From a phage: a stretch of DNA of 64,000 nt. Made by a program: the position numbers and the translations under genes. The notes under the pieces are model-generated. The model was not told the DNA's origin and did not search any database. It saw nothing but the letters and a program-made list of their open reading frames with translations. Below are positions 8,465 through 64,000 of the stretch, in pieces (the stretch's first letter is position 1; each line of letters opens with the position of its first letter). The stretch lies in sequence record OZ335963.1. One strand, 5' to 3'.

Positions 8465-8494
8465 ATAATACCACAGAGGAACAGTCTTGTAAAC
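8465..8494 (-). promoter_or_regulatory. T4 early-type promoter (GTTTAC, 18 bp, TATTAT)
   Basis: Minus-sense GTTTAC 8489-8494, TATTAT 8465-8470. Confidence 0.5.
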
Positions 8495-16835: not shown

Positions 16836-17006
16836 TACAATTTCCTCATTAATTGAACATTGGAGCGATGCGTTTCAGAAGAGTGGCAGCACCTTTGGCA
16901 AATTTTCCATTTTATTCTCCAAGTTATTTTCTGTATCAGTAGTTGATATTGATATAGTACCATAATCAACTACTGATGTATATAGTTTTATGAAAAAATT
17001 TAAACT

Positions 17007-36209: not shown

Positions 36210-36239
36210 ATAGTACCACAGAGGAACAGTCTTGTAAAC
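36210..36239 (-). promoter_or_regulatory. T4 early-type promoter (GTTTAC, 18 bp, TACTAT)
   Basis: Minus-sense GTTTAC 36234-36239, TACTAT 36210-36215. Confidence 0.5.
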
Positions 36240-55991: not shown

Positions 55992-56220
55992 ATTATTCCT
56001 TAATTCCTAGTACTTGTTTAAAAGTCTCGTCGTAATCAAGACTTTGGCCCGTTTGTTCTTTATGTTTGTATATAATATCACTTACTTCTGATAGCATATT
56101 TTATATGAACGAGTTAAAGCAGATTTAAGCACGCTGTATCTATCAGGAAATTTACCATGTTCATTATAATACGCTATTGCTAATTCACGGACTGCCTTTT
56201 CAGCAATCTCCATATATTCT

Positions 56221-56538
56221 TTACGCTTGGTCATTTTCTTCTCGGTCAAATCGGTGTTTGCAATGACGACATTTATAACGAAGATTACTAGTCTGCCAAT
56301 GGACTAATTGAACCTGTTCAGTACCGCATTCAGGACAATTAGGAACGTTTTTAGAAGCCCTTTCGCGACGTTCAACCATAGCCATAATGGCATCCCAAGC
56401 TGGAGGTTTAAAGTCTAAATCATCACAATCATGAATCTTTCCACGCATTTCCAGATCGTCTTCTTCACCAGCCATAATAATTTTAATTAGACTGGAATTA
56501 CTTGAAGCTGCGATATCTTCTAATAGACGCTTTTTCAT
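56221..56538 (-). CDS. zinc-ribbon protein, 105 aa
   Basis: CPECGTE...CRHCKHRF Cys pairs. Confidence 0.45.
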
Positions 56539-59612: not shown

Positions 59613-60518
59613 TTAAGATTTAAGTAAATCAACAATTTTAATTAACTTTTCACGCTCAGATTTAGCTTTACTACTCAATCCAGATAGTCTGAAAATTTCA
59701 TCATCATATTGTTGAATAGAAATATTCAGCTCTTCAATTTGCTTATTAAAATAATCAATTTGTTCAGAATGTTTTTCATTACTACTAATTGGTACAGGTT
59801 TCGTAGGTAATGTAGTTGAACTGGATTCATCCGGGCGGTAAATTAAAATACAACTTGAACCAATAGGGCATTTTGCACCAGATGAATATTCTAATGTTCC
59901 AGATTCTTTTAAAACTTCAAAAGCTAAACAGAGATGATGCCCCATATTAACATAATCTGTGGAGCGAGCTCTGATGTAATAATCATCGCCACGAATACTA
60001 AATTTAAAGCATTTAAGGTCTTCCGTATTATTGGTCTTAAAAATCATTTGTTTATCTAGACCTTTAGCTAATCGAGCGCCTAATGCTAATAATCGTCGTT
60101 GATTTTCCCACAAATCCGCAATCATTTGATCGAATGATAATTTCGGCATTAGTCGACCATAAAGGTCATATCCTTTATTATAATTACGAAGGATTTCACT
60201 CGCGTTAATACGAGACAATGCTCCAATTTTATTAAGAGCTTTCATAATGCGATTAGATAAACTCATTCCAGACCCATTTGTTCGCTGTAAATGTTTTTCT
60301 AATCCAAATCCAATATCAACTTTAAACTTATCTAAAATTTCTGCATGAACATCTCTGTCGATAACATTCAAATCCAAAGTTGGGTTAAATCTATGAAAAA
60401 ATTTATCTGGCTCTGCACTGCGAAATACAGTCCATTCATTCATCATTTTTTTATTAACTAAAGATTTAATTACTGCATTGACATTATTAATTACTACTGA
60501 CATATTTTCCTCACTCAA
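59613..60518 (-). CDS. paralog-array protein D, 301 aa, C-terminal coiled coil
   Basis: Motif LWENQRRLLALGARLAKGL; tail ...IEELNISIQQYDDEIFRLSGLSSKAKSEREKLIKIVDLLKS. Confidence 0.55.
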   Translation of the reverse strand: MSEENMSVVINNVNAVIKSLVNKKMMNEWTVFRSAEPDKFFHRFNPTLDLNVIDRDVHAEILDKFKVDIGFGLEKHLQRTNGSGMSLSNRIMKALNKIGALSRINASEILRNYNKGYDLYGRLMPKLSFDQMIADLWENQRRLLALGARLAKGLDKQMIFKTNNTEDLKCFKFSIRGDDYYIRARSTDYVNMGHHLCLAFEVLKESGTLEYSSGAKCPIGSSCILIYRPDESSSTTLPTKPVPISSNEKHSEQIDYFNKQIEELNISIQQYDDEIFRLSGLSSKAKSEREKLIKIVDLLKS

Positions 60519-60922
60519 TCAATTTCAATTTTACTAAATATACAGAATAAGATGGAACAGACTATATAAGCACCACACACAGATTGAACTAATACCATTC
60601 CAAAGAACCAAACAATATTATCAAACAATGTCTGTTTTACGTCGAAAGGACGTAAACTTACAGTAATATTATCACCTTTTTCTATTGAAGAATACATCTC
60701 TGGGGAAATATATTCACTAAATCTATAACCGTCTTTGAGTTCATATACGGCAATAAACGATAAACTAGACCCTTTTCCTTGTGTTCCTGTAATGGTATTA
60801 ACTACAGTAACATCATAATCTTTATAATGCATATAATCATTAATTGCGTAATAACCATATGCAACTACTACACATAAACAACATATCAATAAATTCAATC
60901 TTCTAATTATCAACCGTTTCAT
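60515..60922 (-). CDS. membrane protein, 135 aa (N- and C-terminal TM segments)
   Basis: Hydrophobic N-terminus LLICCLCVVVAYGYYAI and C-terminus FFGMVLVQSVCGAYIVCSILFCIF. Confidence 0.5.
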   Translation of the reverse strand: MKRLIIRRLNLLICCLCVVVAYGYYAINDYMHYKDYDVTVVNTITGTQGKGSSLSFIAVYELKDGYRFSEYISPEMYSSIEKGDNITVSLRPFDVKQTLFDNIVWFFGMVLVQSVCGAYIVCSILFCIFSKIEID

Positions 60923-60977
60923 AATAATCTCAATTAAAAGGGCTTAGAACCATTATACCATCCTTGGTATAAAGCGG

Positions 60978-61505
60978 TTATGCGAGTACCGTCTTTAACC
61001 GTTCTTCAAACTTCCGAAGAGTATTTTGGCGTTCAGCTCTTTGCTTTTTGTAAGTTTCAATACGCTCTGAAATGAGAGAGTATCGTTCATTTACTGATTC
61101 TTTCATAAAATCAGGAATTTCACGAGAAGCTTTAATCTCGTCAAATTTATCAATAACAGCTTGCTCTTCAGCAATTAAGTTATCATACATTAAAATATCT
61201 TTCTTGATGAACTCAATATCTTCTTGAGTTACACGAGATAATTTAGATGCTTTATCCTTTTTGTACTGTTCGTTAGTATCACGAGACCAGTGTAATGTAC
61301 GATTTTTATTCGTATTTTTGTAAATTTCTACAATACCGATCTCATCAATAATAACGATCCAATTCCAACGGGATTTGTAAATTTGTCCTCCATCAACAGT
61401 GATTTCACCTCCGATTGAGATGTCATTAAAGAACTTGCTTTGTGCTTCAGATTTAAATTTACCATCATTGTAATTTACCAAGTTGAAAATATCTTTAGCG
61501 TTCAT
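60978..61505 (-). CDS. hypothetical protein, 175 aa, C-terminal coiled coil
   Basis: ORF after early promoter; tail ...ERIETYKKQRAERQNTLRKFEERLKTVLA. Confidence 0.5.
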   Translation of the reverse strand: MNAKDIFNLVNYNDGKFKSEAQSKFFNDISIGGEITVDGGQIYKSRWNWIVIIDEIGIVEIYKNTNKNRTLHWSRDTNEQYKKDKASKLSRVTQEDIEFIKKDILMYDNLIAEEQAVIDKFDEIKASREIPDFMKESVNERYSLISERIETYKKQRAERQNTLRKFEERLKTVLA

Positions 61506-61525
61506 TTTCTGTTCCTCCGTAGTTG

Positions 61526-61555
61526 ATAGAGTAATAATACCACAGAGGAACAGTC
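61526..61555 (-). promoter_or_regulatory. T4 early-type promoter (GTTTAC, 18 bp, TATTAT) with SD-complementary spacer
   Basis: Minus-sense GTTTAC 61550-61555, TATTAT 61526-61531; spacer CTGTTCCTC complementary to downstream SD GGAGGAACAG. Confidence 0.5.
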
Positions 61556-61565
61556 TTGTAAACCA

Positions 61566-61880
61566 CTAAAAGAAACTTCTTTCACAATTTTTTCCACTGA
61601 ACCATGCACTTACCGCTTTCTTAGTCTCAGGAGCAGTGTTATCCATAAACCATTCAAAGGCAGCCTTTTTATGATTCTGGAGGGCTTCTCGGGCTTTAAT
61701 CTGTTCACGGTCTATTAACACTAACATATGAGCCTTTCTTGTCACCATGGGCTTCTTATGATTTTTTGAATACTCCCAATCATTTGTCCATCGCATTGTC
61801 GTTGCGAACTGAAATACTGCTTCTTTAATTTTAGTTTCGTAAATTTCACGAGCCTTTGAGTATAACATCACTACCTCCAT
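61566..61880 (-). CDS. hypothetical protein, ~100 aa
   Basis: ORF. Confidence 0.45.
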   Translation of the reverse strand: MEVVMLYSKAREIYETKIKEAVFQFATTMRWTNDWEYSKNHKKPMVTRKAHMLVLIDREQIKAREALQNHKKAAFEWFMDNTAPETKKAVSAWFSGKNCERSFF

Positions 61881-61969
61881 TCACCAGTTTAATTCTAGTC
61901 ATCTTTTTAATGGCAGTCCATATAATCTATTTCTGAACTGCCTTTTTGTCATAGAAGTCCTCTTATGAA

Positions 61970-62938
61970 TTATTTCAGAAGAGTAACCTCAGCGATTTCT
62001 TCCCAACCGTTTTTGTCGGTCATAATAAAGTCAGCAAGATAAAGAGCAGTACGCAGTGAAACATTGCGTAAACGATTAACATTAACTTTCATCCATGATA
62101 ATGCTTTATAAGTTTCTTCATCAGAAAGACCGCGCTTTTGCATCATGTCAGTTGAAAGAATAACATCTTCAACCCTGACCATAATTTCTTCATTAGTATG
62201 AACACCCAAATCCAAATAAACCGAGCGGGACACTAATGCTTGTAAATGTGGAGCAAGTTTAGTACCACGGTCTAATTCGCGGTCAATGTCAACGTTTGTG
62301 ATAAAAACAATCGTTCCTTTAAATTCAAACTCACGCTCAATGCCTTTTTCTTCTAAGTAAGAAGACGCAGTGCTCCAGCAGACTTTACGGGTCTCTCCAG
62401 TGTCCAGAGCAGCTTTTAGAAGATTAAGAATGTCCATATCAGAGAAAACATCCACATCATCAATCAAAAGGACAGAATTCTCTTCACGATTATTCCAAAG
62501 CTGTTCATAAAGACCAATACCAGAGATTTTACCATTAATGCTTTTATATTCAATGTATCCAATATCATTTGCTTTATTCAAAGCTTTATCTAAAGAATAC
62601 GTTTTACCAATACCTGCTGCGCCAGAGATAATTAATGAACGAATATTTCCATTAATAATACCATTCGTCATCATTCCCATAACATTAAATCTTTTATTAA
62701 TGCGGGTTTTCATATCTTCATACGATTCTTTAACTTCTTCAACTTTTACACCATCATATGAAATATCTGATTTGTAAACCCAAACACCGCGACGTTTACC
62801 GTCAATTTCAACAAAAACTTTACCATCTCCTTGTGCATCTACCGGAGCATTATCTGGGAACCATTCGCCTAAGAGCTCAAAAGTTCCAGAGATTTCTTTA
62901 CCGAAGTAGATACCCTTATTGATAGTTACAGTTTTCAT
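61970..62938 (-). CDS. P-loop NTPase (AAA-like ATPase), 322 aa
   Basis: Start at ATG with GGAG SD; Walker A GAAGIGKT and Walker B LLIDDVD. Confidence 0.6.
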   Translation of the reverse strand: MKTVTINKGIYFGKEISGTFELLGEWFPDNAPVDAQGDGKVFVEIDGKRRGVWVYKSDISYDGVKVEEVKESYEDMKTRINKRFNVMGMMTNGIINGNIRSLIISGAAGIGKTYSLDKALNKANDIGYIEYKSINGKISGIGLYEQLWNNREENSVLLIDDVDVFSDMDILNLLKAALDTGETRKVCWSTASSYLEEKGIEREFEFKGTIVFITNVDIDRELDRGTKLAPHLQALVSRSVYLDLGVHTNEEIMVRVEDVILSTDMMQKRGLSDEETYKALSWMKVNVNRLRNVSLRTALYLADFIMTDKNGWEEIAEVTLLK

Positions 62939-63007
62939 TTTATTCTCCAATTTCACATTTGTTTTGATAGGGTAATAGTATCACACTACTACCCTACTGT
63001 AAACAAT

Positions 63008-63271
63008 TTATTTTAGTGTTTGCCAAATTTTTACTGCTTCGCGACGAGATACTTCTACAGCTCCAAGTTCTACGGCTTTTTGACGTCGGCGAGCATGTAA
63101 GTCATAATGTTTAATGCGTTTATCTTGAAACCAAGAACGTTTCATTCCTATTGCTTCTGCCATTTCATGGAGCTCTTCAATATCTCCATCAGTGAACATA
63201 TGACAATTTTTAGTTAGATGACCGCGAAGTTTCCATCCATGATTCATTAAAACATCTACGTAAACTGTCAT
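63008..63271 (-). CDS. DUF4031-like small protein, 87 aa
   Basis: Motifs HLxxD...ELHxMAEAIGMKRSWFQ...HYDL recalled as DUF4031 signature (from memory). Confidence 0.45.
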   Translation of the reverse strand: MTVYVDVLMNHGWKLRGHLTKNCHMFTDGDIEELHEMAEAIGMKRSWFQDKRIKHYDLHARRRQKAVELGAVEVSRREAVKIWQTLK

Positions 63272-63417
63272 TGATTCTGCTCCAAATATGTTTCTATAAT
63301 TTTCTGAGCGAGATAAACTGCGTTATCTTCAGTTGCGTCTTCTAAGAAATTTTCAAAATAAGCTGAAATTTCTTCTGTGTCAATCAACTTTTTTACTTCA
63401 ATTAACGTAGTTTTCAT
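63268..63417 (-). CDS. hypothetical protein, 49 aa
   Basis: Start at MKTTLIEVKK... after early promoter; track ORF extends through the promoter. Confidence 0.4.
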   Translation of the reverse strand: MKTTLIEVKKLIDTEEISAYFENFLEDATEDNAVYLAQKIIETYLEQNQ

Positions 63418-63451
63418 TTTATTCCCCAAATCCGTATCAGTTGATAGTTGT

Positions 63452-63481
63452 ATAGTACCATAAAGCTTTATGCTTGTAAAC
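63452..63481 (-). promoter_or_regulatory. T4 early-type promoter (GTTTAC, 18 bp, TACTAT)
   Basis: Minus-sense GTTTAC 63476-63481, TACTAT 63452-63457; paralogous to the motA promoter cassette. Confidence 0.55.
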
Positions 63482-63502
63482 CGTTTTGTGAAAAAATTTT
63501 TG

Positions 63503-63530
63503 AAATAAAAAAGGGAGCCCGAAGGCTCCC
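63503..63530 (-). terminator. rho-independent terminator (UUCG-loop hairpin plus U-tract)
   Basis: gggagcc-uucg-ggctccc hairpin followed by TTTTTTATTTC on minus strand. Confidence 0.6.
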
Positions 63531-63532
63531 TA

Positions 63533-64000
63533 TCATTTATAATAACTTCGGTGGTTTTCAAGATAAACCCTCTCAAGGAAGTCATCCCAGAAACCCATGT
63601 CTACTTTTTGCTGCATACCGTTCTTAGAAGCTTCAATAGATGCTGCTTCTACTTGATCGACCACATCTTCCAAAAACTCTTGAACAGTTTTAAATGGATG
63701 TTTACCCAACTTCACGTCGAGAATAAATGGAGCGTCTTGAAGTGGATAGACTAAGTCACCAGTTTTGTAAATTTCCAATAGTTGGAGTCCGCCACGACAA
63801 GCATGACTTAGAGCTTTCCAGTCAATGCCCTCATTCGCTTCAGCCTTACGAGCGCGTTCGCCGTATTCAGCATCTAATTTGTTCAGTGACTGCTTAAGCT
63901 CGATAAGAGAAAGCGTTGTCTGATATTTACGGCCCAACACAGTGTAGAACGTTTGTGGGCCTGTTTTCTCATGATTATGGAATACCCATTCACAGAATTC
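63533..64000 (-). CDS. hypothetical protein, partial (5' end beyond window)
   Basis: Frame open from the window edge to stop at 63533; terminator immediately downstream. Confidence 0.5.
   Translation of the reverse strand, partial: EFCEWVFHNHEKTGPQTFYTVLGRKYQTTLSLIELKQSLNKLDAEYGERARKAEANEGIDWKALSHACRGGLQLLEIYKTGDLVYPLQDAPFILDVKLGKHPFKTVQEFLEDVVDQVEAASIEASKNGMQQKVDMGFWDDFLERVYLENHRSYYK

Follow-up and report, generated by a model that had tools for sequence, protein, structure and literature searches.

The closest described counterparts of the locus studied here are the phage T4 genes nrdC.7 to nrdC.10, annotated for decades as T4p091-T4p094 (NC_000866), and the cassettes exchanged among T4-like phages by promoter-early stem-loop (PeSL) shuffling, in which a stem-loop terminator followed by an early promoter flanks open reading frames (ORFs) that differ between close relatives within a hyperplastic region (Arbiol et al. 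2010, PMC2839356; Comeau et al. 2014, PMC4122927). We analysed the corresponding block in phage sequence record OZ335963.1, of which a stretch of 64,000 nucleotides, referred to as the window, was available. The block adjoins the nrdC.3-nrdC.6 paralog array, contains nrdC.7, nrdC.8, nrdC.9, nrdC.10 and a 479-bp insert, and ends just before nrdC.11. It is not new, and it does not uncover a new system, its genes being long annotated in T4 and already covered by two genome-wide fitness screens. A preliminary description of the sequence had proposed that an ATPase plus small partners in a variable region could form an architecture for host takeover or counter-defence. We read nrdC.7-nrdC.10 instead, with a probability of about three in four, as a hyperplastic early segment that is a mosaic of independently inherited, individually promoted and dispensable genes, and not as one multi-component system.

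The window belongs to Tequatrovirus; a megablast query of 60400-63700 matched 767 phage records, the best match being Shigella phage vB_SsoM_113 with 99.0% identity over the full length, and gene names were taken from its annotation and from T4. Comparison with the T4 locus by tblastn gave amino-acid identities of 89% for nrdC.7, 98% for nrdC.8, 98% for nrdC.9 and 99% for nrdC.10. Gene order, strand and intergenic signals are alike in T4 and the window, and the terminator-promoter unit after nrdC.11 is identical in both. The window differs in the insert, which is placed between this promoter and nrdC.10, carries an acidic ORF, a DUF4031 ORF and an extra promoter, and is missing from T4; the final few residues of nrdC.10 also differ. 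All four ORFs named in the preliminary description, a membrane protein, a coiled-coil protein, an ATPase and a DUF4031-like protein, are present on the minus strand at the positions it gave, but its inventory had missed nrdC.9 and the acidic ORF.

The phyletic ranges of these genes, counted by tblastn against 50,697 phage genomes, are discordant. nrdC.10 was found in 1,312 records, which comprise T4-like phages of Klebsiella, Acinetobacter, Aeromonas and Vibrio as well as jumbo phages of 320-380 kb, with identities down to 37%. In contrast, the 742 records with nrdC.8 are without exception from coliphage T-even genera (identity at least 68%), the 693 with nrdC.7 are from Tequatrovirus, Mosigvirus (44% identity) and Karamvirus (about 37%), and 502 of the 504 matches of nrdC.9 are at least 95% identical, the other two being weak matches below 60%. 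The DUF4031 protein has a patchy distribution over 338 records, about 160 of Tequatrovirus or Karamvirus, about 150 of Klebsiella T4-like phages, and a few podoviruses or a mycobacterial prophage, and the acidic ORF is found in 166 T4-like records, adjoining DUF4031 in every case checked. nrdC.10 is the sole widely conserved element of the block, with varying small genes around it; the variable region of the preliminary description is real for the small genes, but the position of the ATPase does not vary.

Gene order points in the same direction. In RB69 the order is nrdC.11-ORF102c-nrdC.10-nrdC.9-nrdC.8-nrdC.6-nrdC.5-nrdC.3-nrdC.2-nrdC.7-nrdC, so that nrdC.7 is relocated to a position beside nrdC. 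Edwardsiella phage PEi20 has three other ORFs between nrdC.10 and nrdC.9 and an antisense gene between nrdC.11 and nrdC.10, and Vibrio phage D485 carries nrdC.10 between nrdAB and a topoisomerase II gene. The jumbo-phage homologues examined (Hallingskeid, SP27 and BF17) align with nrdC.10 only from about residue 67-85 and hence have no N-terminal domain, and the one of Erwinia phage Hallingskeid stands among unrelated neighbours. Each unit of the block has its own signals, as the consensus for early promoters of PST/T4, TTTACW-N17-TAYWAT (PMC4122927), has 16 matches in the window, every one of them on the minus strand, where 0.3 are expected. Three of these lie in the block, before nrdC.8, before nrdC.10 and before the inserted cassette, and form one 44-nt repeat family; the early promoters of the preliminary description are thus real, but it had counted two.

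These data bear directly on the proposal that nrdC.10 and the surrounding small proteins are one ATPase-centred system for host takeover or counter-defence. All are early or middle genes dispensable on laboratory hosts, in a region that also holds pin, directed at Lon, and nrdC.1, which the HIDEN-SEQ preprint reports as a Septu inhibitor (bioRxiv 10.1101/2025.11.20.689424). However, the discordant phyletic ranges, the separate promoters with a terminator between units, the relocation of nrdC.7 in RB69 and of DUF4031 to other positions in Jiaodavirus and Moonvirus, the absence of DUF4031 from T4, and the jumbo homologues lacking the N-domain and, in Hallingskeid, all neighbours, do not support an ATPase with small partners. 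None of the seven proteins searched gave a PADLOC match below E = 0.075, and in the two comparison sheets of the HIDEN-SEQ supplement, one of which is for RexAB, nrdC.7-nrdC.10 show no conditional depletion (log2 changes from -0.31 to +0.18, adjusted p = 1). We regard such a single system as very unlikely.

The accessory character of the genes, on the other hand, is borne out, as none is a core housekeeping gene. In CRISPRi-ART, T4 nrdC.7-nrdC.11 were scored 'Not Fit', meaning that knock-down was without fitness effect (PMC11879866, supplementary file 15), and supplementary file 7 of the HIDEN-SEQ preprint, a transposon-sequencing study, classes T4 nrdC.7-nrdC.10 as 'Non-essential', with TA sites hit in 52/53 cases for nrdC.7, 41/42 for nrdC.8, 18/18 for nrdC.9 and 69/71 for nrdC.10. 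A mosaic of independent genes has nevertheless some points to contend with. Tequatrovirus and Mosigvirus share the order nrdC.10-nrdC.9-nrdC.8, so a lineage-specific functional link among the three is possible, and missing co-conservation speaks against obligate partnership but leaves room for interaction. The published screens were run on laboratory hosts and with a limited set of defence systems, of which the two comparison sheets mentioned above cover a part, and what is proposed below on the mechanism of nrdC.10, nrdC.7 and DUF4031 derives from fold, motifs and neighbourhood.

Table 1. Predicted genes and signals of the nrdC.7-nrdC.10 block (positions in the window; RBS, ribosome-binding site)
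Feature	Position	Strand	Description
nrdC.7	60515-60922	minus	135 amino acids; ORF, phrog_2547 E = 1.8e-67
Candidate middle-type (MotA-box-like) promoter of nrdC.7	60952-60975	minus	exact GCTTTA-N12-TATAAT
nrdC.8	60978-61505	minus	175 amino acids; phrog_2274 E = 1e-110
15-bp hairpin of nrdC.8	arms 61539-61553 and 61509-61523	minus	predicted to pair promoter spacer with nrdC.8 Shine-Dalgarno sequence
Early promoter of nrdC.8	61534-61562	minus	TTTACA-N17-TATTAT; within the 61509-61562 hairpin region
nrdC.9	61566-61868	minus	100 amino acids, DUF7203; start is the second ATG, GGAGG RBS
nrdC.10	61970-62938	minus	322-amino-acid phage-specific AAA+ ATPase; ATG at 62938 with GGAG upstream as in T4
Right junction-repeat copy	62930-62963	minus	34 nt (RBS and ATGAAAACT); flanks the 479-bp cassette
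14-bp hairpin	62967-62997	minus	dG = -19.4 kcal/mol, z = -4.8; overlaps spacer and -10 box of nrdC.10 promoter
Early promoter of nrdC.10	62975-63003	minus	TTTACA-N17-TACTAT; right end of inserted cassette; overlaps hairpin
DUF4031 protein	63008-63271	minus	87 amino acids, basic, isoelectric point 9.5
Acidic ORF	63268-63417	minus	49 amino acids, isoelectric point 4.1, net charge -7.5; phrog_6888 E = 4e-27
Left junction-repeat copy	63409-63442	minus	RBS and ATGAAAACT; original nrdC.10 start region, now serving the 49-amino-acid ORF
PeSL-type unit	63452-63531	minus	nrdC.11 intrinsic terminator 63512-63531, then early promoter 63452-63480

The arrangement of the insert can be followed by alignment with T4, where the nrdC.11 terminator, the early promoter, the ribosome-binding site and ATGAAAACT, which is the nrdC.10 start, are uninterrupted, this terminator-promoter unit lying directly upstream of nrdC.10. 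In the window, the T4-like promoter, ribosome-binding site and ATGAAAACT open the acidic ORF, which is followed by DUF4031 and a second early promoter, and then come a second ribosome-binding site and copy of ATGAAAACT and the rest of nrdC.10. T4 lacks this second promoter, and its nrdC.10 is served by the one found here in front of the cassette. The two junction copies form a 34-nt direct repeat with 79% identity at a spacing of 479, and the 20-mer TGGAGAATAAAATGAAAACT, searched with up to two mismatches, has three sites in the window where none is expected, the two junctions (0 and 1 mismatch) and 16902-16921 (2 mismatches). By tblastn, neither the DUF4031 ORF nor its adjoining small ORF has a counterpart at the T4 locus. 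A comparison of the records with nrdC.10 and with DUF4031 puts the share of Tequatroviruses with the cassette at about one quarter to one third.

We propose that a two-gene cassette, bringing its own early promoter, entered precisely at the translation start of nrdC.10, probably by recombination between repeated promoter/ribosome-binding-site modules as in PeSL shuffling. With the strong intrinsic terminator of nrdC.11 (dG = -16.5 kcal/mol, z = -3.9) followed by the early promoter, and with a presence/absence polymorphism between the window and T4, the arrangement of sequence elements fits the published PeSL mechanism. As in the described cassettes, a stem-loop terminator precedes a TTTACW-N17-TAYWAT promoter in a hyperplastic region, and the units flank ORFs that differ between close relatives. 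It departs from them in that the recombination joint reaches through the ribosome-binding site and the first three codons, with a 20-34-nt repeat that includes ATGAAAACT, and in that the right-hand unit is a promoter-embedded hairpin and not a terminator. This hairpin sits at the 3' end of the DUF4031 message and has no U-tract after it; it might protect an RNA 3' end, act in attenuation or serve as a site of recombination. The clean junction is a textbook example of the swapping of small T4-like genes at repeated promoter/ribosome-binding-site modules. Two other phages, JIPh_Kp122 of Klebsiella (Jiaodavirus) and Moon of Citrobacter (Moonvirus), have a homologous pair some 2 kb downstream of their nrdC.10, with the acidic ORF (42-45% identity to the window) directly upstream of DUF4031 (73-74%); in JIPh_Kp122 the cassette has a stem-loop and early promoter on its left and the identical 20-mer TGGAGAATAAAATGAAAACT at its right end, followed by a different gene. 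As the acidic ORF adjoins DUF4031 in every case checked and the pair has this other position in the two phages, the two ORFs move as a pair that is independent of the ATPase. Some close relatives show further indels in this stretch: OZ035756.1 has about 610 extra bp, Shigella phage CT01 (OK018184.1) has about 144 extra bp along with a 49-amino-acid DUF4031 fragment (P0164), and RB7 (KM606997.1) has an 'intron-like DNA endonuclease' annotated beside nrdC.10.

The DUF4031 assignment of the preliminary description is confirmed by a profile search, the 87-amino-acid ORF being a clear member of the family (PF13223, E = 1.2e-21, 77.2 bits against a cut-off of 25.6). Among 58 diverse sequences, D6, H24, L34, A38, Q49, H55, Y56, D57 and G70 are invariant, H55-Y56-D57 forming an HYD motif, and D28, H35, R45, W47, F48 and R63 are nearly so. 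Such a polar set is unusually dense for 87 residues, which suggests a catalytic or ligand site. The AlphaFold2 model of the protein has a predicted local distance difference test score (pLDDT) of 94; single-sequence and profile searches with DUF4031 against the PDB returned nothing significant, and the likeness to the folate-binding-type N-terminal domain of GcvT, YgfZ, IBA57 and MnmE, at 3-12% identity and low Z, serves as a lead only. An exhaustive profile search yielded 7,305 clusters when grouped at 50% identity. Among the best 150 listed, almost every protein is 90-130 amino acids long and stands alone, and no second Pfam domain was found in the longest of these 150 representatives. DUF4031 is a large, phage-centred family (more than 7,000 clusters) whose polar site is strongly conserved; a full-text literature search returned one incidental mention of it.

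In unrelated phages and prophages, the neighbours of DUF4031 are DNA methylases, endonuclease VII, ThyX, dUTPase, an RNase_T/DnaQ-type exonuclease, SSB and a methylase-restriction pair. No fixed partner was found in prophage and metagenomic contigs, where phage DNA-metabolism genes are the only recurring theme. This neighbourhood points toward nucleic-acid or nucleotide metabolism but names no reaction, and we consider DUF4031 most likely to be a small enzyme or binder directed at nucleic acids or nucleotides, with the acidic protein as its co-inherited partner. The pairing with a conserved acidic protein of 49-54 amino acids is specific to T4-like phages. A more detailed proposal, which we put forward as speculative and rather unlikely to hold in full, is that the two proteins are a mobile unit of a His/Asp-dependent nucleic-acid, nucleotide or folate-type enzyme or binder and its regulator or mimic, which would alter how infection turns out on particular hosts, for example in counter-defence; that its spread between T4-like genomes would ride on the promoter/ribosome-binding-site repeats is a similarly tentative part of it. 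If true, it would be the first function for this family.

The same pair could also be a selfish, addiction-like module of enzyme and inhibitor, that is toxin and antidote, whose patchy spread would reflect its own mobility and not a benefit to the phage. The stop codon of the acidic ORF overlaps the DUF4031 start (ATGA) and the charges of the two proteins are opposite (-7.5 against +4), but in every podovirus, prophage and metagenomic context DUF4031 as a rule overlaps the gene before it by four nucleotides, and the overlap is for this reason not diagnostic. The co-inheritance of the pair across four T4-like genera at differing genomic positions, its patchy distribution and the presence of at least one disrupted copy, the fragment of CT01, would suit such a module; against this, DUF4031 occurs without the acidic partner in podoviruses, actinophage-like prophages and metagenomic phages, and no likeness to known toxin or antitoxin families was found in Pfam, NCBIfam and PADLOC. 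From these sequence features we hold a toxin-antidote module to be improbable, and favour the nucleic-acid- or nucleotide-directed protein with a co-inherited partner.

The preliminary description had noted in the ATPase the motifs GAAGIGKT and LLIDDVD and an N-terminal domain of about 100 residues, and nrdC.10 has both. The Walker A motif (K118) and the Walker B motif (D166, D167) are invariant in 45 homologues, and an AlphaFold2 model built with the alignment of these 45 sequences (pLDDT 88) runs from a five-stranded beta domain (residues 9-67) through a long helix (79-102) to an AAA+ core (107-250) and a helical lid (255-326). In its Walker motifs and in the modelled alpha-beta-alpha core with a C-terminal helical lid, nrdC.10 conforms to the AAA+ superfamily. 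N221, R244 (in SRS) and R302 are invariant where sensor 1, the arginine finger and sensor 2 are expected, the assignment being by position only, and mean column conservation is 0.77 in the core, 0.73 in the lid and 0.58 in the N-domain. None of the Pfam AAA families (AAA_14, AAA_22, AAA, nSTAND3) was matched at its gathering threshold, the best being AAA_14 with 23.5 bits against 27, and NCBIfam gave no informative match.

A conserved insert of about 30 residues (185-214) precedes sensor 1, and the model has neither a helix-2 insert nor an initiator-specific helix, a single helix (146-155) lying between the strands 136-141 and 161-166. These features place nrdC.10 outside the definitions of the initiator, clamp-loader and MoxR classes. 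A DnaA/Cdc6/ORC initiator was rejected on account of the missing extra helix and the pre-sensor-1 insert, which initiators and clamp loaders lack (Hda E = 0.018, Cdc6 E = 0.13). For a clamp loader, SRS stands at the position of SRC and the PHROG clamp-loader matches are weak (E about 1e-4), but the same insert is adverse. The MoxR class is defined by a helix-2 insert, a pre-sensor-1 hairpin and VWA/MIDAS partners, and was rejected as this combination was not found and the helix-2 insert is missing. Compared with the MoxR class (NorQ, CbbQ), MCM, NtrC-type proteins, DnaA/ORC and RFC, the N-terminal beta domain is unique to nrdC.10.

Homologues were found solely in phage records or phage-like contigs. 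A BFVD structure search returned only uncharacterised phage AAA+ proteins, among which a Roseobacter siphophage (32% identity) and uncultured phages show the module, and single-sequence and profile searches of nrdC.10 against the PDB gave nothing significant. Motifs and model together suggest an active ATPase that is kept under purifying selection and belongs to a phage-specific AAA+ lineage. Its most likely role would be that of an ATP-dependent oligomeric remodeller or switch that recognises a protein or nucleoprotein target via the N-domain; we give this general mode of action an even chance. The preliminary description had stated that function could not be deduced from the sequence, and we agree that none can be read from it. 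With its 1,312 genomes, nrdC.10 is among the most widely conserved uncharacterised genes of T4-like phages, although it can be dispensed with under laboratory conditions.

It was also considered that nrdC.10 works together with the upstream nrdC.11, a COG3541-type nucleotidyltransferase, in nucleic-acid repair or nucleotide metabolism, the small genes being passengers. nrdC.11 lies no more than a few ORFs upstream in Tequatrovirus, Mosigvirus, Jiaodavirus, Kanagawavirus, Moonvirus and Acinetobacter Lazarusvirus, each of the two genes is spread over the whole family (1,550 records of nrdC.11 against 1,312), and the position of nrdC.10 between nrdAB and the topoisomerase II gene in D485 would be in keeping with such a role. 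In D485 (about 185 kb), however, nrdC.10 has no nrdC.11 within 5 kb, and in the similar-sized D491s nrdC.11 is at about 117 kb, evidence that is indirect because these are two genomes. No nrdC.11 stands beside the homologue in the jumbo phage examined, Hallingskeid, the two genes are divided by a terminator and a separate promoter, and among the deletions described in PMC9825161 those of T4 nrdC.11-mobD.3, which leave nrdC.10 untouched, are viable, as are those of nrdC.1-6. The idea of an obligate pair is weakened by the Vibrio and jumbo phages, and we judge a joint role of nrdC.10 and nrdC.11 unlikely next to independent inheritance. The gap between the two is moreover an insertion hot spot, with different unrelated ORFans in each genus. 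The gap is empty in T4 and holds one ORFan in RB69, two small ORFs in Jiaodavirus and in Acinetobacter phages, and three ORFs in Moon, of which one is annotated as an RNA polymerase ADP-ribosylase; the antisense gene of PEi20 is annotated as 'tail needle knob'.

In T4, hairpins that sequester the ribosome-binding site are combined with an internal promoter at the genes e, 49 and I-TevI, and a similar design may exist at nrdC.8. Here a 15-bp stem joins the Shine-Dalgarno sequence to sequence upstream of the predicted promoter start, and the RNA fold has a dG of -23.2 kcal/mol and a z of -5.5. Read-through RNA from nrdC.9 would have both arms, so that the nrdC.8 ribosome-binding site would be hidden, whereas RNA begun at the nrdC.8 promoter would be without the 5' arm and its ribosome-binding site would be free. 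Translation of nrdC.8 is thus probably restricted to transcripts from its own promoter. The likeness to the three T4 genes is one of analogy, and it differs in that the internal promoter would be early at nrdC.8, not late or middle. The GGAG before nrdC.8 has been shown to undergo moderate RegB cleavage in vivo (PMC1702504). The early promoter with its hairpin-arm spacer recurs, exactly or with one change, at 8465-8493 and 36210-36238 on the minus strand. These two sites possibly have the same Shine-Dalgarno-sequestering design at other genes, and together with the nrdC.8 copy they are potential substrates of PeSL-type recombination. An Rfam search found no RNA family, tRNA included, at threshold anywhere in the 64 kb.

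The nrdC.8 protein is rich in beta structure in its N-terminal half, and its C-terminal third is helical and charged. Its family is narrow, with 44 clusters, all at least 67% identical, in a collection of 5.8 billion proteins. The preliminary description had likened its coiled-coil tail to those of the preceding paralogs; the resemblance holds in composition but does not extend to homology, as nrdC.8 considered as a truncated nrdC.3-6 paralog gave no BLASTP match better than E = 4.8 and an hhalign probability against the nrdC.3-6 profile of 0.1%. The neighbouring nrdC.9 matches DUF7203 (PF23833, E = 3e-15, 56.8 bits against a gathering cut-off of 27) as well as phrog_1931, and the DUF7203 profile also recognises a protein of Edwardsiella phage PEi20. 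nrdC.8 and nrdC.9 would accordingly be described as small, early, lineage-restricted proteins. The mRNA of nrdC.8 is lower in DRT1-expressing cells (PMC13275509); that report of 2026 treats nrdC.8 as a 'nucleotide reductase' because of the gene name only, and we disregarded this designation as a naming artefact. The same was done with the label 'thioredoxin', which many nrdC.3-nrdC.11 homologues bear in T4-like genomes of GenBank and which has evidently spread from the gene names.

The double transmembrane protein of the preliminary description is nrdC.7, whose hydropathy peaks at both ends, with Kyte-Doolittle means over 19 residues of 2.1 (residues about 4-27) and 2.3 (about 105-130). The predicted layout is probably an N-terminal signal-anchor transmembrane segment, a central domain of about 75 residues, probably periplasmic, and a C-terminal transmembrane segment. 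The promoter before nrdC.7 belongs to a motif that, with at most one mismatch, has nine matches in the window where 1.27 are expected, and the site is identical in T4. From the known consensus of T4 middle promoters, it would be a MotA-dependent middle promoter. nrdC.7 may accordingly be an inner-membrane hairpin protein with a periplasmic domain, expressed from a middle-type promoter and probably directed at the envelope.

Two neighbouring genes showed differences in reading frame. In the window nrdC.1 is split into ORFs of 55 and 34 amino acids (about 56082-56249 and 55993-56097, minus strand) by a deletion near 56102, where an A-run is one nucleotide shorter (A4) than in T4 and vB_SsoM_113 (A5); the change is a genuine frameshift or else a sequencing error in the homopolymer. 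In nrdC.6, the window sequence 59613-60518 matched the T4 reference by tblastn in two pieces, the last 37 residues, which form the coiled-coil tail, being out of frame with the first 264. The gene is 828 nt long in the T4 reference annotation and 891 nt in the T4D genome as listed with the HIDEN-SEQ data, and the T4 reference nrdC.6 probably carries a frameshift.

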